From a virus (Duplodnaviria > Caudoviricetes), in the IMG/VR virus record IMGVR_UViG_3300028844_006787: a DNA stretch of 64,000 nucleotides; one strand, written 5' to 3'. The translations under genes were made by a program, and so were the position numbers. The notes under the pieces were generated by a model. It worked only from the letters and a program-made list of their open reading frames with translations, was not told the DNA's origin and did no database searches. Shown one piece after another: positions 1,957 to 56,706 of the stretch. Positions within the stretch are counted from its first letter, which is position 1. Each line of letters opens with the position of its first letter.

Positions 1957-2032
<76 letters not shown>

Positions 2033-2078
2033 AATAATAATATTCATATATATATACATATATAGAAAACTAAAAAGA

Positions 2079-2169
2079 TGGCGGAGAGAACAGGATTCGA
2101 ACCTGCGGAAGGATATACTCCTTCAACGGTTTAGCAAACCGTCGCCTTAAGCCACTCAGCCATCTCTCC
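2079..2169 (-). tRNA. tRNA-Ser(GCU)
   Basis: GGAGAGA...TCTCTCCGCCA, anticodon arm ACGGT-TTGCTAA-ACCGT, long variable arm, CCA. Confidence 0.97.
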
Positions 2170-2180
2170 TATATTTAAAA

Positions 2181-2257
2181 TGGCATCCACACGGAGATTC
2201 GAACTCCGGTTGCCGGGATGAAAACCCGGTGTCCTGACCTGACTAGACGATGTGGAC
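2181..2257 (-). tRNA. tRNA-Glu(UUC)
   Basis: GTCCACA...TGTGGATGCCA, anticodon arm CCGGG-TTTTCAT-CCCGG, CCA. Confidence 0.96.
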
Positions 2258-2265
2258 ATTTAGTG

Positions 2266-2340
2266 TCGGGATAGCAGGATTCGAACCTGCGACCCTTCGC
2301 TCCCAAAGCGAATGCGCTATCCAGACTGCGCTATATCCCG
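2266..2340 (-). tRNA. tRNA-Pro(UGG), no encoded CCA
   Basis: CGGGATA...TATCCCGA, anticodon arm TTCGC-TTTGGGA-GCGAA. Confidence 0.95.
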
Positions 2341-2353
2341 AATAAATTAAATG

Positions 2354-2427
2354 CACGGGAGGTGAGACTTGAACTCACGACCCACTGCTTAGAAGGCAGT
2401 TGTTCTATCCAACTGAACTACTCCCGT
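2354..2427 (-). tRNA. tRNA-Arg(UCU), no encoded CCA
   Basis: ACGGGAG...CTCCCGTG, anticodon arm ACTGC-CTTCTAA-GCAGT. Confidence 0.95.
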
Positions 2428-2438
2428 AAAAAATAAAA

Positions 2439-2514
2439 TGGAGCCACCTGTCGGGATCGAACCGACGACATCCTCATTACAAGTGAGGTGCTCTACCATC
2501 TGAGCTAAGGTGGC
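2439..2514 (-). tRNA. tRNA-Thr(UGU)
   Basis: GCCACCT...AGGTGGCTCCA, anticodon arm CCTCA-CTTGTAA-TGAGG, CCA. Confidence 0.97.
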
Positions 2515-2648: not shown

Positions 2649-3248
2649 TTAATTTCTAATTAAAAAAGGTTTCCATTCAGGACGAATATTAGTTCCTACC
2701 TCATAAAATGGTTTGGGTGGTTCTGCTTTTAATATTTGACCCTTATAGTCGTAATAAGGAAATATACTACCCTTCCGTGAATTACATTTTATACAAGTTA
2801 GAGTAATGTTATAGTAATCATTATTTCCACCTTTACTTTTTGGTTTGATATGCTCAATGGTCATTTTCTTTTGTGGAATCTCTTTCCCACAGATTTGACA
2901 GATTCCATTGTATTTTTTATACAAGTATTTAAGTGAAGGTTTTCGTTTTGCATTATATGTAAAACTTGAAGTAGTTAATAAAATCGTTGGAACTGGTATC
3001 GCATTATTAACAGATCTTATAAAAGGTTGTTGTGGGTAAAATCCATGCTTGTACTCAACCCAAGTATTCCAATCACAGGTAACCCCATCACTTGCTACTG
3101 CCATAACCTTTGGACGAGTTTTATGATACCTATCACTTGCTCCCATTAACTTTTTGATTCCTTCTTTTACCGAGGTAACATTCAAAGGACTCCAATAGTG
3201 AGTTAATAGCAGAACAATATTGTCTGCCGAATTTACAAATTCATACAT
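2649..3248 (-). CDS. HNH endonuclease
   Basis: CQICG...TIEHIKPKSKGGNNDYYNITLTCIKCNSRKG. Confidence 0.92.
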   Translation of the reverse strand: MYEFVNSADNIVLLLTHYWSPLNVTSVKEGIKKLMGASDRYHKTRPKVMAVASDGVTCDWNTWVEYKHGFYPQQPFIRSVNNAIPVPTILLTTSSFTYNAKRKPSLKYLYKKYNGICQICGKEIPQKKMTIEHIKPKSKGGNNDYYNITLTCIKCNSRKGSIFPYYDYKGQILKAEPPKPFYEVGTNIRPEWKPFLIRN

Positions 3249-3331
3249 GGAATATAGTATAGAATATTTTTTAAAAATAACAAGTTAAAATATCATTTGA
3301 CGAAAATATAAAAATTAGTTAATATATAGAG

Positions 3332-3748
3332 ATGGATAATAATGATAATTACACAGCACTTGCTTTATTGCTTGAATTGCTTACTACATCACAAAAATAT
3401 GTTGATGCTTATATAGAACGATTTCCAGAACAAACAGAAAACGCACTCAGTTTTTCAGTTGACCCAGGATGTAGTTGTAAAGAAAAAATAATTGAACACT
3501 TCAAAAATAACGCAGAAGCACTTGATGATTTAACGCAAACGTTTCTACAAAACAATCCACTTGAAATTAACTTAAAAGAGTTTCTTCGAGGAATCTCGGT
3601 GAATAATGTAGCAGGACGAATGTTTAAAATTGACAAAACCGAAGAAGCATATAGTGATTTCATAGACAATATGAAAAACAATCGTTGGGCATTTAGATAT
3701 ATGTCAGTTGCGGTAGATGGAGACAAGTATGTGTTTTTCTTTGCGTAA
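3332..3748 (+). CDS. Hypothetical protein
   Basis: 138 aa; TTGACG-N17-TAATAT promoter ends 6 nt before ATG. Confidence 0.75.
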   Translation: MDNNDNYTALALLLELLTTSQKYVDAYIERFPEQTENALSFSVDPGCSCKEKIIEHFKNNAEALDDLTQTFLQNNPLEINLKEFLRGISVNNVAGRMFKIDKTEEAYSDFIDNMKNNRWAFRYMSVAVDGDKYVFFFA

Positions 3749-22500: not shown

Positions 22501-22950
22501 TTATTTACTCTTGGATTTCTTTTTCTTTTCTAAATTCTCTCCGGCCGCAACTCTTCTTCTAAGTGCAGAACTACTATAATCATGCTTACGGGAATTATAC
22601 ATCACTTTATCTAAATGACCAGGTAAGTCGTGACCGGTAAATGGTTTGTCTTTCCAATCGTCTCCAACAAAACGAACATCGTAATCAATGCCCTTGAGTA
22701 TCTCAATTAAGTCTGACTCTGTCTCGTATGGAATGATTTCGTCAACGAACTTACTTCCACGAAGTTGTATATATCTTTCTACAACTGATTGAACTGGTTT
22801 GTTTTTATCGGGTCTATCTAATTGTGGGTTAGTATGCAATCCTACAATTAAATAATCACAATGACGTTTACAATCTTCCATCATAAGCACATGACCCGCA
22901 TGAAATACGTCCATTGCTCCACAAGTAAATCCTTTAATTATTTTTTCCAT
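22501..22950 (-). CDS. Cytidylyltransferase (TagD/glycerol-3-phosphate cytidylyltransferase-like)
   Basis: GAMDVFHAGH, LIVGL, VGDDW, YSSSALR. Confidence 0.9.
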   Translation of the reverse strand: MEKIIKGFTCGAMDVFHAGHVLMMEDCKRHCDYLIVGLHTNPQLDRPDKNKPVQSVVERYIQLRGSKFVDEIIPYETESDLIEILKGIDYDVRFVGDDWKDKPFTGHDLPGHLDKVMYNSRKHDYSSSALRRRVAAGENLEKKKKSKSK

Positions 22951-22962
22951 TATAGTAAGTTT

Positions 22963-23661
22963 TTAAATTTCTTTGAGTAATTTTTGAGTATGTTTCCAGT
23001 CGTCAACTTGAAACACTTTATCTGGATTACTTAAAACTTTAGCAATTGGATAATCGTTTCCACCTTCCATAGTTTTATCTCCGTAAAAATAAATTCTACC
23101 TTTTAACTTATTTCTAATTTGAGATTTATTTTTTCCTTTCTCGTGGATGTCTATGCTAATTTGACCACCAGCACTACTTTCAAGTTCAGGAAATTCTTCG
23201 TTTAATATGTTACACATTATTTCTCTTTCTTTAGAAATTTTATCGTATTCATAGTATGCTTCTCGTTGTTCTTGTGTACAATCACGACCAATTACACTTA
23301 TATTCAATAAACCCATACGAGTTTCTAGGTGATTACCGGCACGAATTTCATATTTAGATGCTTCAATCAATTCTTTACACCTTTCGAGTAATTTATCATC
23401 AGGTTCCCATGAACTTTTCTCAATAAGTTTACCTTTTCTAAAAATTACATTACCACCACATTGATGTGATTCGGTTACATTTTTCCAAATATTCCGACCA
23501 ACCTGTTCTATGGTTTTATCGTGGTCGGAACCCGTGAGAAGATAAACATTTTTATCTTTTATCCAATTTAAAAAAAACTTTTGGAATTCTTGATCCATAG
23601 TAAGTCTACTTGGAGTAAGAGTTCCATCAACATCAAATACATAATTAGTTAATCTAGCCAT
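22963..23661 (-). CDS. HAD-IIB phosphomannomutase (eukaryotic PMM type)
   Basis: FDVDGTLTPSR, TGSD, GGQISID, FYGDKTMEGGNDYPI. Confidence 0.9.
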   Translation of the reverse strand: MARLTNYVFDVDGTLTPSRLTMDQEFQKFFLNWIKDKNVYLLTGSDHDKTIEQVGRNIWKNVTESHQCGGNVIFRKGKLIEKSSWEPDDKLLERCKELIEASKYEIRAGNHLETRMGLLNISVIGRDCTQEQREAYYEYDKISKEREIMCNILNEEFPELESSAGGQISIDIHEKGKNKSQIRNKLKGRIYFYGDKTMEGGNDYPIAKVLSNPDKVFQVDDWKHTQKLLKEI

Positions 23662-23837: not shown

Positions 23838-23871
23838 GTAATATAAATATAAAAATAAGTTTTTATAAAAC

Positions 23872-23901
23872 AAAAAAGGTGAAAGTTTCCTTCCACCTTT
23901 T
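23872..23901 (-). terminator. Intrinsic terminator after dnaK
   Basis: AAAAGGTG...CACCTTTT stem flanked by A/T runs. Confidence 0.75.
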
Positions 23902-23926: not shown

Positions 23927-25849
23927 CTATTTAGATTCTTGCTTTTCGTCTTCGTCAACAACTTCAAAATCAGCATCAACTGTATTATCAGATTTTTCTG
24001 ATGTCTCCTCTGAATGTTGTTCTTCTTCAGGTGGTGTCATGTATTGAGAAAGTGACTGAAGTTTTTCAATCATATTCTTTGACAACTCTTCTAAATCTTC
24101 TTTACTTGAATTCGCATCATTTAATTTTGACTTAGATTCAGTTAAAAACTCAGATATACTTTTTGATTCTTCTTCTGGTATTTTCTCTTTGTTTTCTTCA
24201 AGTGATTTTTCAATTTGAAATACAAGTGCTTCAATTTGGTTCTTTTGTTCGATAAGTTCTTTCTTTTGTTTGTCTTCTTCTGCATACTTTTCAGCATCTG
24301 CTTTCATTTTTTCAACTTCTGCTTCATCAAGTCCACTTGAATCACTAATTGTAATCTTTTGGTCTTTACCTGTACCCTTATCAGTTGCAGATACATTAAG
24401 AATACCATTTGCATCAATATCAAAAGTAACTTCAATTTGTGGTGTCCCACGGGGTGCAGGAGCAATTCCGTCTAGTTTAAAGTTACCAAGTTTTTTATTG
24501 TCGGCAGACATTGCTCGTTCTCCTTGAAGAATCACAATATCAACACCAGGTTGATTATCACTTGCCGTTGTAAAAATTTGCGACTTCTTTGTAGGAATTG
24601 TAGTATTGCGTTCTATCATGGGTGTAGAGACTCCTCCTTGCGTTTCGATTCCAAGTGATAGTGGAGTTACATCTAGCAACAAAACATCACTCACTCCCTC
24701 GTCTCCAGACAATATAGCACCTTGTACAGAAGCTCCGAGAGCAACTACTTCATCTGGATTAACTCCTTGGTGTGGGTCTTTACCACCCGCAAGTTCTTTT
24801 GCTAACTCAACAACTCTAGGACTGCGAGTCATTCCTCCCACAAGAACGAGATTATTAACATCACTCATAGTGATACCAGCATCATCAAGGCACTTTTCAA
24901 ATGGTTCTTTTGTTCTTTGATATAATGTATCACAAATTTGTTCAAACTTACTACGAGTAATGTTTAAATTAAGGTGTTGAGGTCCATCTGCATTCGCAGT
25001 AATAAACGGAAGATTAATATCGGTGGAAGAACTAGATGATAATGCAATCTTTGCCTTTTCCACCTCTTCTTTGATTCGTTGTATAGCTTGGTTATCGGTA
25101 GTAATATCAATACCACTATCTTTTTTAAACTCAGCAACAACATAATCAATCAATGCTTCGTCCCAGTTGTCACCACCCAGTTGTGTATCACCATTGGTAG
25201 ACTTAACTTCAAATACTCCGTCTCCTATTTCAAGAATAGATACATCATAAGTACCACCACCGAGATCATATACCGCAATAGTTTCTTCACTTTTCTTTTC
25301 TAATCCATAAGCAAGAGAAGCAGCTGTTGGTTCATTAACGATACGCAACACCTCAAGACCTGCAATTTCACCTGCGGTTTTGGTTGCTTGTCGTTGAGAA
25401 TCATTGAAGTAAGCAGGTACGGTAATAACTGCTTGTTTTACATCTTCTCCCAAATATGCTTCTGCGTCTGCTTTTAGTTTACCAAGAATAATACTAGAAA
25501 TATATTCAGGTGCATATTCCTTTTCTTCACCATTGTCGGTTACTTTTATATATGCATCTCCGTTTTTTCCAGAAACTACTTTATATGGTAAATTCTTTAC
25601 CTCGTTCTTGATTTCTTTGTATTTTCTTCCAACAAGACGTTTCGCAGAAAAAATTGTATTCTCTGGATTAGTTATTGCTTGTCTTTTTGCAGATTGTCCT
25701 ACAAGACGTTCACCGTTTTTTGAAAAAGCAACAATGCTTGGTGTGGTACGTGAACCTTCAGAATTTGTTATTACTTTTGGTTCACCTGCTTCTACTACAG
25801 CTACACAGCTGTTAGACGTTCCTAAATCAATGCCAATTACTTTAGCCAT
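23927..25849 (-). CDS. dnaK: Chaperone DnaK (Hsp70)
   Basis: [43 protein letters not shown]; full length. Confidence 0.99.
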
Positions 25850-25884
25850 TTTTATGTACTCCTTTTATTTTTATGTTAATTTTT

Positions 25885-25930
25885 TTGAATCTCGTTTGAG
25901 CATTCAAGATAATCTCATTTGAGCATTATC
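25885..25930 (-). promoter_or_regulatory. Tandem bulged-G RNA hairpins in dnaK 5' leader
   Basis: GATAAT-G-CTC-AAAT-GAG-ATTATC directly followed by TTGAAT-G-CTC-AAAC-GAG-ATTCAA. Confidence 0.7.
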
Positions 25931-25957
25931 ATTATATAAATATAATGTAAAACTTTT

Positions 25958-26899
25958 TTATTCTCCTTCTTTTCCATCACAGGGTCCACCTTTTTTACTA
26001 GCAAACTCGCACCAACGACAATTTTTTTTGTTTTTACCAGGTGTTTTTGGAAACGGATTATCTAAATTATATTCACCACTTTTGGTAAACGATTCATTTA
26101 AAAATGAATTGAAACTACTCCATGCTTCTTTGCTACTCATTGTACCATGTGGTGGAATAAAACGTTGAATTCTATCACCAGCAAATGGTTCATCTTCATT
26201 GTGCTTGCGTTTAAGAATAATAAACTCAACTTCAATTTTATCTAAAGGTACATTGAATTCTTTTGCATAGAAAACTTTATATAAAAGTAATTGATGAGTT
26301 TTACTTTCATCTGCCTTTTGCCATTTATTCCATCCACGTGTAGATGTTTTCAAGTCAATAATCTTATACTTTTGATTGATTTTATCAAATAAAACAACAT
26401 CAAGAAATCCAATATAACCAATATTATTTTTTACTTCCAAATCAATAGATGTTTCTATACCAGATAATGAATAACGAGTTTTAGAGAAAAATTTGTGACG
26501 AACTTCTTCCGAAAGCAAGTAATCCAATATTTGATTGCCATCATCAATAAACTCATCAAAAGTTTCATCGTCCATACAACGTTTACCATCAATAAGATTC
26601 TCTGACTTGTCTGCAAGTTCAGTCATTACTTGAAGAAGTCGTTCTTTCCAATTAATTGAATTTACATCAAGGTGTGGTTGATTATATAACATTTCAAGAT
26701 AATCTTGAATAGTTTCGTGCATAGAAGTACCAAATACTAAATGTATATTAGCTTCCTTTTTGCGAAGATTATCAATATATGCAAGTTTCCAACTACGAGG
26801 ACACTTGTAATACATTGAGTATTGAGAAAAACTTACGTACTTGTTGTACTTTTTTTCTTTAATTTGTTTCTTTTCACCTGCTTCTGCTACTTGTGTCAT
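25958..26899 (-). CDS. PD-(D/E)XK exonuclease (RecB/Cas4-like)
   Basis: SFSQ..Y.KCP, FGTSMHE, GFLDVV, IIDLKTS, QLLLY, C-terminal CRWCEF...C. Confidence 0.9.
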   Translation of the reverse strand: MTQVAEAGEKKQIKEKKYNKYVSFSQYSMYYKCPRSWKLAYIDNLRKKEANIHLVFGTSMHETIQDYLEMLYNQPHLDVNSINWKERLLQVMTELADKSENLIDGKRCMDDETFDEFIDDGNQILDYLLSEEVRHKFFSKTRYSLSGIETSIDLEVKNNIGYIGFLDVVLFDKINQKYKIIDLKTSTRGWNKWQKADESKTHQLLLYKVFYAKEFNVPLDKIEVEFIILKRKHNEDEPFAGDRIQRFIPPHGTMSSKEAWSSFNSFLNESFTKSGEYNLDNPFPKTPGKNKKNCRWCEFASKKGGPCDGKEGE

Positions 26900-27241: not shown

Positions 27242-28576
27242 ATGAAGTCTTATATTGATTCGGTGATAAACGGAGTGGAGAGAGTAGACAGACATCAACT
27301 AGAATTTAGACAAGCTATAGTTGAAGTATTAGAAACACTAAAACCACTATTAAAAAGTAACTCTATTTACAAAGAACATTCTATATTAGAAAGAATTGTA
27401 GAACCAGAAAGAATAATCTGCTTCCGTGTTCCTTGGTATGATGATAACAATAAAATACAAGTGAATCGTGGATTTCGTGTACAATTTAATAGTGCAATTG
27501 GTCCATACAAAGGTGGTTTAAGATTTCATCCAAGTGTTAATTTGAGTATAATTAAGTTTCTTGGATTTGAACAAATTTTCAAAAATAGTTTAACAGGACT
27601 TCCAATGGGGGGAGCAAAGGGTGGAAGTGATTTTGATCCAAAAGGAAAAAGTGACAATGAGGTTATGCGATTCTGCCAAGCACTTATGTCCGAATTAAAT
27701 CGTCATATAGGACAATTTACAGATATTCCTGCAGGAGACATCGGTGTAGGTGCCCGAGAAGTCGGATATTTATTTGGATATTACAAAAAACTTAGAAATG
27801 AAGTAACAGGTACAATCACAGGAAAGGGTCTTGACTTTGGTGGAAGTTTAACAAGAACCGAGGCAACGGGATACGGATGTTGTTACTTTATGAGAGAAAT
27901 GTTAAATAAGATTAATACATCATTTGATGAAAAACGTGTGAGCATATCTGGATCAGGAAATGTAGCTTTATATGCAATGCAAAAAACAATTGAGTTGGGT
28001 GGAAAAGTTATTACGATGAGTGATTCATCGGGATATGTATTTAATCCAAAAGGTTTGAATTTTAATATAATGAAAGAGATTAAAGAAACCAAACGACTTA
28101 GAATATCAGAATATGCAAAGCAGGATAAAAACACAAAGTATATTGCGGGAGGAAACATTTGGGATTTATCGTGTGATATAGCAATGCCATGCGCTACCCA
28201 AAACGAACTTGAAAAGAAAGATGCGGAGTTGCTATCAAGAGGTGGTTTACTTGCAATTGCCGAAGGAGCAAATATGCCATGTACACCAGATGCAATTGAA
28301 GTGTTTACACATAATAAAATTCCGTTTGGACCAGGCAAGGCATCAAATGCAGGTGGAGTTGCGGTAAGTGGTCTTGAAATGTCTCAAAATAGCATTAGAT
28401 ATTCGTGGACATTTGACGAAGTAGATGAAAAACTACAAACAATAATGAAAAACATACACGACAAAGCATACGAAACCTCAGAGGTGTTTAATGACAAAGG
28501 AAATTATATTATGGGTGCTAATATTGCAGGATTCGAAAAAGTTGCAAACGCAATGATTTCACAGGGTCTTGTTTAG
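27242..28576 (+). CDS. gdhA: Glutamate dehydrogenase, NADP-type hexameric
   Basis: GPYKGGLRFHPSV, GGAKGGSDFDPKGKS, DIPAGDIGVG, ATGYG, SGSGNVA, NAGGVAVS. Confidence 0.97.
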   Translation: MKSYIDSVINGVERVDRHQLEFRQAIVEVLETLKPLLKSNSIYKEHSILERIVEPERIICFRVPWYDDNNKIQVNRGFRVQFNSAIGPYKGGLRFHPSVNLSIIKFLGFEQIFKNSLTGLPMGGAKGGSDFDPKGKSDNEVMRFCQALMSELNRHIGQFTDIPAGDIGVGAREVGYLFGYYKKLRNEVTGTITGKGLDFGGSLTRTEATGYGCCYFMREMLNKINTSFDEKRVSISGSGNVALYAMQKTIELGGKVITMSDSSGYVFNPKGLNFNIMKEIKETKRLRISEYAKQDKNTKYIAGGNIWDLSCDIAMPCATQNELEKKDAELLSRGGLLAIAEGANMPCTPDAIEVFTHNKIPFGPGKASNAGGVAVSGLEMSQNSIRYSWTFDEVDEKLQTIMKNIHDKAYETSEVFNDKGNYIMGANIAGFEKVANAMISQGLV

Positions 28577-28589
28577 TATATATGTATAT

Positions 28590-29933
28590 ATGAGTAAATA
28601 TGTTGATAGTATAATACAAAAAGTAGAAGAACGGAATCACTCCGAGCCAACTTTTATTCAAGCAGTAAAAGAGGTTTATAGTAGTCTTCATAATGTGTTT
28701 CAAAAACATTCCGAATTTAAAAAAGTTAATTTACTTGAACGACTTGCAGAACCAGAAAAACAAATAATGTTTAGCATACCTTGGATAGATGAAATTGGAA
28801 ACGTTCATGTAAATCGTGGATACAGAGTTCAGTTTAATAGTGTATTAGGACCATACAAAGGTGGTTTAAGATTTCACCCAAGTGTGAATATAAGCACTAT
28901 GAAATTTCTAGGATTTGAACAAACTTTTAAAAATAGTTTAACCGGACTACAAATCGGTGGTGCTAAAGGTGGAAGTGATTTTGATCCAAACGGAAAAACC
29001 GATTTGGAGATAATGAGGTTCTGTCAATCGTTTATGATGAAACTACATGATCACCTTGGACATAAAACTGATGTTCCTGCAGGAGACATTGGGGTGGGTT
29101 TTAAAGAGATAGGTTATCTGTTTGGACAATACAAAGCACTTCACAGTAAATATGAACCAGGACTCATTACAGGTAAATCACCAGACTGGGGTGGAATACA
29201 CGGTAGAAAAGAAGCAACAGGATACGGGGCAATTTATTTTATCGAGGAGATGTTAAAAAACCACCACACTAATTTAAAAGGAAAAGTATTAACGGTGAGT
29301 GGATTTGGCCAAGTTGCATTTGGTGTAGTAAAAAAAGCAATAGATATGGGTGCTAAAGTAGTAACAATATCTGGTCCGGATGGTTACATATATATGAAAA
29401 CTGGAATTAAAAAATCACAAGTTGATTATATGGAAACACTTAGAAACTCAAACCAAGATATTGTAAAACCTTTTGCAGAAAAATATAATGCAGACTTTAT
29501 TCCTAACAAGAAACCCTGGGAAGTTCGTTGTGATATAGCAATTCCGTGTGCAATTCAAAATGAAATAAACGAAACAGATGCGGAAATGCTTATTGATAAC
29601 GATTGCAAATTTATAGCCGAAGCAGCGAATATGCCATGTACAGAGGAAGCAATTAAATTATTTAATAAAAAATTAGTTGTAGTTGCTCCAAGTAAAGCAG
29701 TAAACGCAGGAGGTGTGGCAGTATCTGCACTAGAAATGAGACAAAATGCAGGGTGGGATAAATGGCAATTACCACAAGTAGATAATAAACTAAGAGAAAT
29801 TATGCGTCAAATACACGACTCGTGTCTTAAACACGCAAGAAAATATGGAAACGAGGGTGATTATACTCTGGGAGCAAATGTAGCAGGATTTCTAAGAGTA
29901 GCAACTGCGGCTATTGCACATGGTATTATCTAA
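28590..29933 (+). CDS. Second glutamate dehydrogenase (possibly NAD-preferring)
   Basis: Likely start MSKYVDS at 28590; same catalytic motifs but SGFGQVA and ISGPDGY in the nucleotide-binding domain. Confidence 0.95.
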   Translation: MSKYVDSIIQKVEERNHSEPTFIQAVKEVYSSLHNVFQKHSEFKKVNLLERLAEPEKQIMFSIPWIDEIGNVHVNRGYRVQFNSVLGPYKGGLRFHPSVNISTMKFLGFEQTFKNSLTGLQIGGAKGGSDFDPNGKTDLEIMRFCQSFMMKLHDHLGHKTDVPAGDIGVGFKEIGYLFGQYKALHSKYEPGLITGKSPDWGGIHGRKEATGYGAIYFIEEMLKNHHTNLKGKVLTVSGFGQVAFGVVKKAIDMGAKVVTISGPDGYIYMKTGIKKSQVDYMETLRNSNQDIVKPFAEKYNADFIPNKKPWEVRCDIAIPCAIQNEINETDAEMLIDNDCKFIAEAANMPCTEEAIKLFNKKLVVVAPSKAVNAGGVAVSALEMRQNAGWDKWQLPQVDNKLREIMRQIHDSCLKHARKYGNEGDYTLGANVAGFLRVATAAIAHGII

Positions 29934-50544: not shown

Positions 50545-51300
50545 TCATATTCCTAATAAATTTTTAATAATGCTAATTCTTAAATTATCTGCATCTTCTT
50601 TTTTATACTTCAAATATTTTTCTTGTAAAATTCCAATATTTTCATGCGACACGTGAACAACACCATAGTTTTCGTTTTCAATATATCCAATATTCGGACC
50701 TGCAAGTATTTTGTTTTCTACAGGATCGATATATCCACCAAATTCATCTCGGTTTCGTGTCATTAAAATATTGTAGTGATTTCTTAGTTTTACATATGAT
50801 TCATTATGATTCATAAAATTATATTGAAAAAATTCTTGGTCATGGTAATGATTTGCTTGATTTTTCAAAATTTCTAAACGTTCGTTGCTTACTTCCACAA
50901 ATGCTTTGCATAAATTTTCAAATTGTTTTGGTGTTCCACTTGCAAGAAATGGACAAGCAAAATCCATAAAATGAAGTTTGTCGTTGGGTTCTGTAATTGA
51001 AAAATTAGCATTGATCGCATCATAATCACTTACATAAAATTTTTCATCTGCTTGAGTTGCATATGCCAACCAACGAAACCAACAACTCATTCCGTATTCA
51101 GAAATTTCGTTATTGGTAATTTCTCGGAAGATTCTACGCATTTCTGTGTTCAAAGTTTCAAAATACGAATGTTTTTTCGCATTATTTAAATTTAGCACGA
51201 TTGGTTCGTAACCATGTCGTGACCAACTCTCTTTCCACAAATCTATAAGTTCGTTTTGGGAAGAATGACTTATCTCTTGGTAGTAAGTGTATATTTTCAT
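50545..51300 (-). CDS. Putative GT-A glycosyltransferase-like protein, paralog 3
   Basis: MKIYTYYQ; CWFRWLAY; SDYD (DxD); HYHDQ; late HVSH. Confidence 0.7.
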   Translation of the reverse strand: MKIYTYYQEISHSSQNELIDLWKESWSRHGYEPIVLNLNNAKKHSYFETLNTEMRRIFREITNNEISEYGMSCWFRWLAYATQADEKFYVSDYDAINANFSITEPNDKLHFMDFACPFLASGTPKQFENLCKAFVEVSNERLEILKNQANHYHDQEFFQYNFMNHNESYVKLRNHYNILMTRNRDEFGGYIDPVENKILAGPNIGYIENENYGVVHVSHENIGILQEKYLKYKKEDADNLRISIIKNLLGI

Positions 51301-52040
51301 ATTCCTAATAAATCTTTTATTAAAAATAACCTTACGTCATTTTTGCAGGAATTCTTATTATTATTCGTACTATTCAAATACATCGTGGTACTAGCATGAG
51401 AAACATGATAAATTCCATAAGTTTTTGGACTTGGATTTTTTTCATGGTTAGGTAAATAGTAGTCCCCAATCCCACCTTCATGTGATCTATCCCGTGTCAT
51501 TAAAATGTTATACTTATCTTTTAATTCTTCAACAGATTCATTATGGTCTGACATAAAATTGTAAATAAAAAATTCTTGGTCATGATAATGATTTGCTTGT
51601 TGTTTTAAAATGTCTATTCGTTCGTTACTTACTTCTACAAATGCTTTGCATAAATTTTCAAATTGAATTGGAGTTCCACTTGCTAAAAATGGACAATCAC
51701 TATCCATCAAATGAAGTTTATCCTCTGGTTCTGTAATTGAAAAATTAGCATTGATTGCATCGTAATCAGAAACATAAAATTTTTCATCTGATTGTGTTGC
51801 ATATGCCAACCAACGAAACCAACAACTCATTCCGTATTCTTCAATTTCTTTGTTTGTAATTTCTCGAAAGATTCTACGCATTTCTGAATTCAATGTTTCA
51901 AAATAAGAATGCTTTTTTGCATCATTTAAATTTAGCACGATTGGTTCGTAACCTTGACGAGACCAACTAAGTTTCCACAAATCTATAAGTTCGTTTTGGG
52001 AAGAATGACTTATGTCTTGATAATAAGTGTAAATTTTCAT
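51297..52040 (-). CDS. Putative GT-A glycosyltransferase-like protein, paralog 2
   Basis: Near-identical N-terminal ~160 aa to neighbours; ATGA overlaps. Confidence 0.7.
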   Translation of the reverse strand: MKIYTYYQDISHSSQNELIDLWKLSWSRQGYEPIVLNLNDAKKHSYFETLNSEMRRIFREITNKEIEEYGMSCWFRWLAYATQSDEKFYVSDYDAINANFSITEPEDKLHLMDSDCPFLASGTPIQFENLCKAFVEVSNERIDILKQQANHYHDQEFFIYNFMSDHNESVEELKDKYNILMTRDRSHEGGIGDYYLPNHEKNPSPKTYGIYHVSHASTTMYLNSTNNNKNSCKNDVRLFLIKDLLGI

Positions 52041-52783
52041 TTTGGTTTTTCTATTTTTAATATATCACGAATTATCATTACTCTTGCTCGTTTGCCGTAA
52101 GTTTCCTCATACTTAGCATATGATTTATTTTTTGTGAGAGTAACCCCAGTCATATGATGCGATACATGATAAACCAATGAGTTTTCATTTATATCAGAAC
52201 CACCAAATTTCGTTCTATCATGTGTCATTAAAATGTTATGCTTATCTTTTAATTCTTCGGCAGATTCATTATTTCCTGACATAAAATTGTGCATAAAAAA
52301 GTTTTGGTCATGATAATGATTTGCTTGATTTTTCAAAATTTCTAAACGTTCGTTGCTTACTTCCACAAATGCCTTACACAAATTTTCAAATTGTTTCGGT
52401 GTTCCACTTGCAAGAAACGGACAAGCAGAATCCATAAAATGAAGTTTGTCGTTGGGTTCAGTAATCGGAAAATTAACATTAATTGCATCGTAATCAGAAA
52501 CATAAAATTTTTCTTCAGTTTGAGTTGCATATGCCAACCAACGAAACCAACAACTCATTCCGTAGTCAGAAATTTCGTTATTGGTAATTTCTTTGAAGAT
52601 TCTACGCATTTCTGTGTTCAAAGTTTCAAAATACGAATGTTTTTTTGCATCTTCTAAATTAAGCACGATTGGTTCGTAACCATGTCGTGACCAACTTATT
52701 TTCCACAAATCTATAAGTTCGTTTTGAATAGCATCGTTTTGATCAGAATGATTCATATTCTGATAATAAGTGTATATTTTCAT
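52037..52783 (-). CDS. Putative GT-A glycosyltransferase-like protein, paralog 1
   Basis: Same family; TATTTATA 4 nt before ATG. Confidence 0.7.
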   Translation of the reverse strand: MKIYTYYQNMNHSDQNDAIQNELIDLWKISWSRHGYEPIVLNLEDAKKHSYFETLNTEMRRIFKEITNNEISDYGMSCWFRWLAYATQTEEKFYVSDYDAINVNFPITEPNDKLHFMDSACPFLASGTPKQFENLCKAFVEVSNERLEILKNQANHYHDQNFFMHNFMSGNNESAEELKDKHNILMTHDRTKFGGSDINENSLVYHVSHHMTGVTLTKNKSYAKYEETYGKRARVMIIRDILKIEKPK

Positions 52784-52821
52784 AATCTATAAATATGAAA
52801 TAAAGTAATTTTTATAATAAC

Positions 52822-54688: not shown

Positions 54689-54713
54689 TTTTCTCTCTTT
54701 TTTGTTTTTCTTC

Positions 54714-54766
54714 TTTCTCACTCTCAATACAAGTATACTACCAAATTTATTATAAAAAGTCAAGCC
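54714..54766 (-). repeat. Repeated early promoter/leader cassette, copy 1
   Basis: GGCTTGACTTTTTATAATAAATTTGGTAGTAT...TATTGAGAGTGAGAAA, nearly identical to 55858-55910. Confidence 0.85.
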
Positions 54767-54772
54767 TATATC

Positions 54773-55823: not shown

Positions 55824-55857
55824 ATTTCTCTCCTTTTTTAAATTTTTAACTTTCTCT

Positions 55858-55910
55858 TTTCTCACTCTCAATATAATAACATTACCAAAATTATTATAAA
55901 AAGTCAAGCC
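55858..55910 (-). repeat. Repeated early promoter/leader cassette, copy 2
   Basis: Matches 54714-54766; partial third copy at ~56248-56266. Confidence 0.85.
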
Positions 55911-55924
55911 CTAAGGCAGAAAAA

Positions 55925-56230: not shown

Positions 56231-56268
56231 GTTACCAACATAATCTAATTATTATAAAAAGTCAAGTC

Positions 56269-56706
56269 CTAAGTTTCACCTTGTTCGTAGAAATCAACCT
56301 TAAATTTAAATCGTTTCCACCGAAAGTTATCTGCATCAATATGTTCTGACAATAAATGCACGGCAGATAATCTATGAGAACCATCACAAAATCCACCATT
56401 TACTATAATCATCGGTTCAAGGGCAAGAAGGGTGCTAGGATTGTCTTTAAGTTTATATGCTAACTTAGTGACATTTTGAGTTACCAAGTCGTTTTTGATG
56501 CCTTTACGAACATTACTTAATACCCTATGATAATATGGTACAATTTTATAGTAGATTCCTGTGGCATTTTCATTATGCTCATTGTGTATCTGACCATCGT
56601 ATTCTGATACCAAATCAAATATACATTGTTTATTTAGAAATTTACGATACAGAAATCTTGTATTTTCTAAATTTGGAGTTCCACCTGTTGAACTCCGATT
56701 GTCCAT
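56269..56706 (-). CDS. ParB/Srx-like nuclease fold protein
   Basis: EPMIIV...DGSHRLSA. Confidence 0.55.
   Translation of the reverse strand: MDNRSSTGGTPNLENTRFLYRKFLNKQCIFDLVSEYDGQIHNEHNENATGIYYKIVPYYHRVLSNVRKGIKNDLVTQNVTKLAYKLKDNPSTLLALEPMIIVNGGFCDGSHRLSAVHLLSEHIDADNFRWKRFKFKVDFYEQGET

Follow-up and report, generated by a model that had tools for sequence, protein, structure and literature searches.

In Pseudomonas, ibpA is preceded by a short ROSE-like thermometer that consists of two hairpins (Krajewski et al., 2013; PMC3669281). Hairpin I is stable and does not melt with temperature, and it has been suggested that it stabilizes the transcript or helps its folding (PMC3669281). In the Rfam model ROSE_3 (RF02523), the stem of hairpin I has ~8 bp and is interrupted by a single bulged G; the tip is CCG/CGG, and the loop begins with A (GAU-G-CCG-AA..CGG-GUC). 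In E. coli, according to Miwa and Taguchi (PMC10474464, PMC10410725), IbpA itself binds stem-loops in the leaders of ibpA, ibpB and rpoH and is titrated by aggregates, and its residue Arg93 is irreplaceable (PMC10474464). A further precedent for the binding of a small heat-shock protein (sHsp) to stem-loops in chaperone leaders is found in a 2020 bioRxiv paper.

The phage element analyzed here, two hairpins in the leader of a dnaK gene, is a tandem, hairpin-I-only form of this ROSE-like kind of leader. Hairpin I of the short ROSE-like ibpA leaders is its closest known counterpart, which the preliminary description of the locus had not named. In the literature searched, no published description of such leaders in phages, or of phage-chaperone control, was found.

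The dnaK leader and its surroundings

In the window, i.e., the whole 64-kb stretch of DNA that was analyzed, the minus strand reads from 5′ to 3′: TATTTATA, TAAT, hairpin 1, hairpin 2, an A-rich tract, AAGGAG and the dnaK ATG (Table 1). The preliminary description had placed two abutting hairpins with a bulged G here, 4 nt after TATTTATA and before the A-rich tract and AAGGAG, and the sequence and positions confirm this. In each hairpin, a bulged G separates an outer stem of 6 bp from a CUC/GAG tip, which carries an AAAY loop. The outer 3 bp are GAT/ATC in hairpin 1 and TTG/CAA in hairpin 2, with perfect pairing in both. Within the window, a 15-nt core has exact matches at the two hairpin sites only, and the models R1 and R2 give no further matches. 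Hairpin 1 scores 38.3 bits with R1 (E 3e-7) and 35.3 bits with R2. Hairpin 2 is found by R2 as a local match of 18.4 bits, a low score that is due to its overlap with the flank of hairpin 1. Both the MFE and the centroid structure of RNAfold consist of the two bulged hairpins (z = -2.1, with 5 of 200 shuffles folding equally well). By itself this z-score is weak support; the significance of the hairpins comes from the comparison with relatives.

Table 1. Features of the dnaK region and other features of the window.
Feature	Position	Strand	Remarks
Conserved TATATTTATAT motif	25934..25944	-	Contains TATTTATA (25942-25935)
TATATT, likely -10 box	25944-25939	-	Part of the TATATTTATAT motif
TAAT	last T of the TATATTTATAT motif and 25933-25931	-	Directly 5′ of hairpin 1
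Hairpin 1, GAUAAU-[G]-CUC-AAAU-GAG-AUUAUC	25908..25930	-	Sequence, fold, R1/R2 scores, covariation
Hairpin 2, UUGAAU-[G]-CUC-AAAC-GAG-AUUCAA	25885..25907	-	Abuts hairpin 1 (spacer 0); sequence, fold, R2
UAAC box, between hairpins and Shine–Dalgarno	25875..25878	-	Within TTAAC of the A-rich tract
Shine–Dalgarno of dnaK, AAGGAG, unpaired	25859..25864	-	Sequence and fold
dnaK, 640 aa, ATG at 25849	23927..25849	-	Pfam HSP70, E 5.6e-256; NCBIfam DnaK equivalog, 939 bits
Terminator-like hairpin and T run, directly 3′ of the dnaK stop	23874..23901	-	Sequence scan
PD-(D/E)XK nuclease gene, upstream of the dnaK leader, co-oriented	25958..26899	-	Domain search
Eukaryotic-type phosphomannomutase (PF03332) and cytidylyltransferase-like gene, downstream of dnaK	22501-23661	-	Consistent with the glycan-synthesis theme of the genome
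Tandem overlapping glutamate/leucine dehydrogenase paralogs	27242-28576, 28569-29933	+	~74% DNA identity over a 300-nt repeat copy
Cluster of six tRNA genes	1960-2514	-	
Unit of ~740 bp in three tandem copies	50746-52800		76-91% identity; presumably paralogous genes
Repeated intergenic word	54699-54771, 55843-55915, 56247-56273		Reverse complement is TTGACTTTTTATAATAA, followed by a -10-like box

The terminator-like hairpin that directly follows the dnaK stop codon suggests that dnaK is a stand-alone unit. A sequence scan detected no terminator between the nuclease gene and the dnaK leader; the hairpins themselves were considered as terminator of the nuclease gene, and this reading was rejected, given the weakness of their stems and the lack of a U run after them. 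The TATATTTATAT motif is kept in the dnaK and hsp20 leaders that are found by motif plus core, and the hairpin begins 7–9 nt after its conserved -10-like TATATT box. At several loci among the hsp20 leaders of jumbo phages, this box is preceded by TTGACA at a distance of 17 nt (TTGACA-N17). Three leaders that were retrieved by protein (L079, L087 and L092) have upstream sequences other than the TATATTTATAT motif. From this arrangement, the start of the dnaK transcript is inferred to lie near hairpin 1. A consensus scan found no -35 element at the window's own dnaK promoter, which leaves room for hairpins that are an internal part of a read-through mRNA.

Other promoter-like words occur in the window. 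With up to two mismatches, TTATATTTATATA is present 68 times versus 18 ± 4.5 expected, and one of the copies (23840-23852) directly follows the dnaK terminator. It may serve as general promoter word of the phage. The TTGACTTTTTATAATAA repeats (Table 1) are likely minus-strand promoters of the sigma-70 type. In addition, the reverse complement of the TATATTTATAT motif contains the T4 late-promoter word TATAAATA.

Hairpin 2 also holds an ATG that opens a frame of 10 codons, MLKRDSKKLT* (25871-25903, minus strand). Similarly, the second hairpin in hsp20 leaders of jumbo phages (L110, L116-L118) opens a frame MPxxGFVT... whose stop codon, TGA, often overlaps the ATG of hsp20. A leader peptide was nevertheless rejected as general function: in most hsp20 leaders ACG takes the place of this ATG, for which reason the short frame is probably a by-product of the structure.

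Conservation, covariation and distribution of the hairpins

IMG/VR contains eight contigs with a DnaK at 57–84% identity, and in each of them dnaK is preceded by the conserved element. All relatives with a DnaK that is ~80% identical have two hairpins at the same place. Their loops read AAAT, AATT, AACG, AACA, AAGT or, with 3 nt, AAT; hairpin 1 shows a change from A-U to G.U, and hairpin 2 is kept in relatives with an A.A mismatch in the outer stem. The relative at 57% DnaK identity has a single hairpin, in which the tip is unchanged and the stem is GC-rich and unrelated. Across relatives, the spacer between the hairpins varies from 0 to 10 nt and leaders with one hairpin also exist. The abutting pair that was originally described is thus real in the window, although strict abutment is not conserved.

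The same hairpin is found at a second chaperone gene. Scanning IMG/VR for motif plus core gives 37 loci, about 33 of them at chaperone genes; a scan with a bare 17-mer core was discarded, as it returned mostly chance matches within coding sequence. Apart from the dnaK loci and four chance matches, all loci with a readable downstream gene precede a protein of ~157 aa. Five of these proteins were tested and are Hsp20 (PF00011, E 1e-19 to 1e-21), and the others have the same N-terminal sequence. The outer stems at hsp20 are diverse (GATAAC/GTTATC, GTAATC/GATTAC, GACAAC/GTTGTC, TCGAC/GTCGA, AGAGCAAC/GTTGCT and others). When hsp20 loci are retrieved by protein and not by motif, the canonical tip is present in 23 of 28; the remaining five are one near-identical group with the variant G-CUAA-UCAA-UUAG.

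To quantify pairing, two alignments were made, i.e., A1 with 36 unique hairpin copies and A3 with 45 unique copies, the latter adding CCC/GGG and CAC/GUG tips. In A1, 93.3% of the cells are paired versus 36–44% when the partners are slid; overall, pairing in slid controls is 33–51% versus 93% observed. Double-sided changes are seen in all seven variable pairs of A1 and in eight of ten pairs of A3. The covariation score of A1 is 0.562 versus 0.185 in shuffles, and none of 500 shuffles reaches the observed value; across the two alignments, scores range over 0.56–0.66 versus 0.19–0.21 in shuffles. The invariance of CUC/GAG in A1 exists partly by construction, as the regular expression selected the tip, while in A3 the middle pair of the tip covaries (U-A 36, C-G 8, A-U 1). 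The pairing is not an artefact of selection, since every one of the 22 unique core matches among leaders retrieved by protein satisfies the pairing filter. Finally, in the six inner pairs of the outer stem, 11 cells are G.U or U.G, and neither A.C nor C.A occurs; the presence of the former and absence of the latter indicate that the RNA of the sense strand folds. In summary, the module has a variable, covarying stem from whose 5′ side one G bulges out, a 3-bp tip of the form C-N-C/G-N-G and a loop of 4–5 nt that mostly starts with AA, with loop lengths of 3–5 nt across copies. Judged from these alignments, the hairpins are sense-strand RNA structures under strong selection. The proposal that outer base pairs which differ yet remain paired reflect selection on structure is in this way supported by covariation as well as by the sense-strand G.U pairs.

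The G.U pairs also bear on a role at the DNA level, in which the element would be either an antisense sigma-70 promoter or the palindromic operator of a repressor. In favor of such a role, CIRCE and other heat-shock operators are inverted repeats between promoter and gene, and plus strand 25919-25946 reads TTGAGC-N16-TATAAT, a match to 10 of 12 consensus positions. This sequence is the reverse complement of the hairpin core plus the TATATTTATAT motif and would run antisense to the nuclease gene. The likeness to CIRCE/HrcA and HAIR/HspR lies in an inverted repeat between promoter and chaperone gene and, for CIRCE, in the CTC...GAG inner ends. Unlike in those operators, however, the arms covary, the spacer is 4 nt versus 9 or 7, the bulge is asymmetric and G.U pairs are specific for the sense strand. 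The CIRCE repeat, TTAGCACTC-N9-GAGTGCTAA, is absent from the leader, as had been reported initially, and the arms covary rather than stay conserved. Outer arms that stay paired while their sequence changes, with G.U but never A.C, a loop of 3–5 nt and half-sites made unequal by a bulge are all unexpected if the site acts as double-stranded DNA. An antisense transcript, moreover, would enter the co-oriented upstream gene. A function at the DNA level is therefore very improbable.

The search of phage dnaK and hsp20 leaders by covariance model that had been proposed at the outset indeed finds the hairpins there, and shows them to be chaperone-specific. Over 723 kb of phage DNA, R1 exceeds 29 bits at hsp20 and dnaK leaders only. 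Five contigs of 130–170 kb from relatives of the window have exactly two R1 sites each, a number that is a lower bound because the contigs are fragments. One site is in the dnaK leader and the other, ~50 kb away, is just upstream of the single hsp20 of that phage. The latter leader consists of TTGACA-N17-TATATT, 9 nt, a hairpin with a CUC tip and then a bulged-G hairpin AAU-G-CCC-loop-GGG-AUU. Five contigs of 67–122 kb with hsp20 only, in which HSP70 is absent, have one R1 site each, at hsp20. Every hairpin-bearing phage record that was checked encodes Hsp20. As far as these sequences reach, the hairpin marks exactly the chaperone genes, both in a jumbo-phage lineage and in many smaller marine phages. 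Among isolated phages, none has an Hsp20 at >40% or a DnaK at >60% identity. One distant dnaK-bearing viral contig (L036) additionally carries a tmRNA (3231-3662, 69.9 bits).

In the bacteria covered, the element was not found. Motif plus core in 596 Gb of species genomes gives 16 scattered, chance-like matches, none with the hairpin geometry or a downstream chaperone gene. The hairpin is likewise absent from eight bacterial dnaK loci, the closest of those covered, and from five whole donor-like genomes, with best scores of 11.6 and 20.6 bits versus 30–41 bits at phage sites. In a comparison that covered sampled Verrucomicrobiota and Bacteroidota, the DnaK of the window is nearest to a subset of the Verrucomicrobiota (65–67% identity, about 890–900 bits), while identity to the Bacteroidota proteins is at most 62%. 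In this the window DnaK differs from that of ‘moraphage’, for which an origin in Flavobacteriia has been reported (PMC12619734). As the hairpin is not found at bacterial dnaK loci or in donor-like genomes, dnaK has apparently come under an element whose proper place is the phage hsp20 gene.

Relation to ROSE elements and accessibility of the Shine–Dalgarno region

A search of Rfam, which had also been proposed initially, gives no family for the element. At the gathering threshold, the window and nine loci yield tRNAs and one tmRNA only, and at E <= 10 the leaders yield noise and a weak match to freshwater-2 (RF02980), a family with a consensus of three hairpins. The latter was rejected, as its scores are 16.7–23.7 bits versus a gathering score of 49.9, it recurs at many unrelated gene starts driven by the Shine–Dalgarno/AUG tail, and its alignment places hairpin 1 of the model on the promoter. 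ROSE (RF00435) and ROSE_3 have no match at E <= 10 on positions 25780-26020 of the window or on locus L071, nor at the dnaK and hsp20 leaders of five relatives. For ROSE_3, a sample of 101 Gammaproteobacteria carries no information, as it gives no match and the controls are silent too.

A resemblance to ROSE elements is visible in two isolates, Methylophilales phage Melnitz and Pelagibacter phage HTVC115P. Both encode an IbpA-like Hsp20, and a bulged-G hairpin is located near its promoter. After this hairpin comes UYGCUU-AAC..-AAGGAG, a sequence that, judged by eye, is able to form the helix that masks the Shine–Dalgarno region in ROSE elements. Predicted folds reproduce the bulged hairpin in both phages; the second pairing is a ROSE-type helix in the fold of Melnitz and a weaker pairing of 4 bp with the Shine–Dalgarno region in that of HTVC115P. 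The Melnitz hsp20 leader matches the whole ROSE_3 model with 34.1 bits (E 3e-4), below the gathering score of 43, and its bulged-G hairpin aligns to hairpin I. The hairpins of the window resemble hairpin I of ROSE_3 in their 5′-proximal position, in the one G that bulges from the 5′ side of the stem, in the 3-bp C/G tip and in a loop that starts with A. They share with ROSE elements the location in a chaperone leader and the architecture of hairpin I; a 3′ hairpin pairing with the Shine–Dalgarno region and a supporting Rfam score are lacking. Compared to hairpin I of Pseudomonas ibpA, the phage module has CUC/GAG or CCC/GGG instead of CCG/CGG at the tip and AT-rich stems, it occurs as two tandem copies and on dnaK as well as hsp20, and no hairpin II that masks the Shine–Dalgarno region follows. 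Neither R1 nor R2 finds hairpin I in Melnitz or HTVC115P (the broader R2 also misses L087), and ROSE_3 misses the window, so the relation between phage module and ROSE hairpin I is one of architecture and context, not of demonstrated homology.

The preliminary description had raised a thermosensor as one possible function. In the window, however, the Shine–Dalgarno region is located about 25 nt 3′ of hairpin 2 in the unpaired A-rich tract, and its predicted probability of being unpaired is 0.95, 0.95 and 0.93 at 10, 25 and 37°C, respectively. The consensus fold of the hsp20 leaders likewise leaves GGAG unpaired in an A-rich tract. Lower accessibility is predicted for HTVC115P (about 0.3) and for the distant locus L036 (about 0.5); for Melnitz the prediction becomes unreliable once coding sequence is included. 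In the absence of a masking hairpin II, these models argue that the hairpins at dnaK of the window are not a thermometer that occludes the Shine–Dalgarno region.

A degenerate ROSE-like thermometer, in which the YGCUC/GAGR hairpins with bulged G still sense temperature, could work by other routes, i.e., melting that alters mRNA stability or transient long-range pairing with the true Shine–Dalgarno region. Locally, the pairing of Y-[G]-CU with AG-G has the geometry of the helix between Shine–Dalgarno and anti-Shine–Dalgarno in ROSE elements. In Melnitz, where the alignment agrees with inspection by eye, and in HTVC115P, UYGCUU...AAGGAG is pairable with a bulged G, the ROSE_3 match of Melnitz points the same way, and L036 has a second helix that pairs with the Shine–Dalgarno region. 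In the window, YGCU and the bulged G pair instead with a GAGA 45–70 nt upstream of the start, after which no start codon is conserved across leader classes. No UYGCU adjoins the Shine–Dalgarno region of the window, which stays unpaired over 10–37°C, the ROSE models are silent on the leaders of the window and its relatives, and hairpin I of Pseudomonas, as described above, does not melt (PMC3669281). It is quite unlikely that the phage hairpins still sense temperature. The TAAC box forms the loop of the masking hairpin II in Melnitz and HTVC115P. In 22 of 26 unique chaperone leaders (L030-L118) TAAC is located 16–29 nt upstream of the ATG, versus three of nine in a control set that is too small to judge enrichment.

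Possible ligands and roles of the hairpins

An invariant bulge and tip on a stem of free sequence, two chaperone genes per genome and a 5′-proximal position together point to a leader hairpin that is specifically recognized. The preferred reading, which is considered probable, is that a tandem, hairpin-I-like leader module marks a chaperone regulon without masking the Shine–Dalgarno region. The module would form at or near the 5′ end of the mRNA, a trans-acting protein would recognize the invariant bulge and tip, and this candidate protein would couple translation or stability of the hsp20 and dnaK mRNAs to chaperone demand. Protein binding by the hairpins is plausible; of the two functions proposed initially, a putative protein operator is the better reading, and a specific protein-bound operator is a serious possibility. 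In a further-reaching version, a self-standing operator of this kind, free of a thermosensing hairpin, joins hsp20 and dnaK in a post-transcriptional proteostasis feedback loop, in which unfolded protein would titrate the phage sHsp or another chaperone off the leaders. This version is possible but on the unlikely side.

As for the identity of the protein, no obvious candidate for an RNA-binding regulator was found among the genes flanking hsp20. The leading candidate is the phage sHsp, which may act like IbpA of E. coli. As in the IbpA system, the gene of a small heat-shock protein and another heat-shock gene share leader stem-loops, and a feedback by chaperone titration of the IbpA type would explain a two-gene regulon in the phage. 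The leaders of the E. coli IbpA targets, in contrast, also mask the Shine–Dalgarno region. Moreover, in alignment A4 the Hsp20 clade associated with the hairpin has Ser at IbpA position 93, whereas Tyr34 and the basic residues 97/98 are kept; Arg at position 93 is kept in the Hsp20 of Melnitz and HTVC115P. The IbpA-type Arg93 signature is thus missing from the very clade that carries the hairpin, and Hsp20 itself as binding factor is doubtful.

The architecture had initially been compared to the MS2 operator. What stands of this comparison is the general form: like the MS2/R17 operator, the module is a small hairpin with a single bulged purine under a short upper stem, a tetraloop, a sequence-specific tip and a sequence-free stem. 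The details differ, as the MS2 operator has a bulged A, 2 bp between bulge and loop, an ANYA loop and the start codon inside, versus a bulged G, 3 bp, AANN and no start codon in the phage module. Both the window sequence and A3 depart from an MS2-type operator, and no coat-protein homolog is implied in this dsDNA jumbo phage.

Recognition by a protein may not be needed if the stem-loops are plain 5′-terminal stabilizers that shield the mRNA from RNases dependent on the 5′ end, without a specific partner. Stem-loops at the 5′ end are able to stabilize bacterial mRNAs, as has been proposed for hairpin I of Pseudomonas ibpA (PMC3669281), and both the start of the phage hairpin 7–9 nt after the -10-like box and the free variation of its outer stems would suit this role. 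However, a generic stabilizer needs no invariant bulged G, conserved tip or conserved loop start, and its confinement to two chaperone genes in 130–170 kb would be unexpected. As sole function stabilization is unlikely, while protection of the 5′ end from decay is a likely secondary role of the specifically recognized module.

Phage-encoded chaperones are widespread in aquatic phages. As the leader module described here lacks a masking hairpin, what the conserved 5′ hairpin does can be viewed apart from thermosensing, and the role of hairpin I in ROSE-type leaders becomes directly testable. In particular, it can be asked whether hairpin I is the site of a feedback of small heat-shock proteins on chaperone mRNAs. 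If the operator reading is true, it would also reveal the role of the conserved 5′ hairpins in bacterial ROSE elements.
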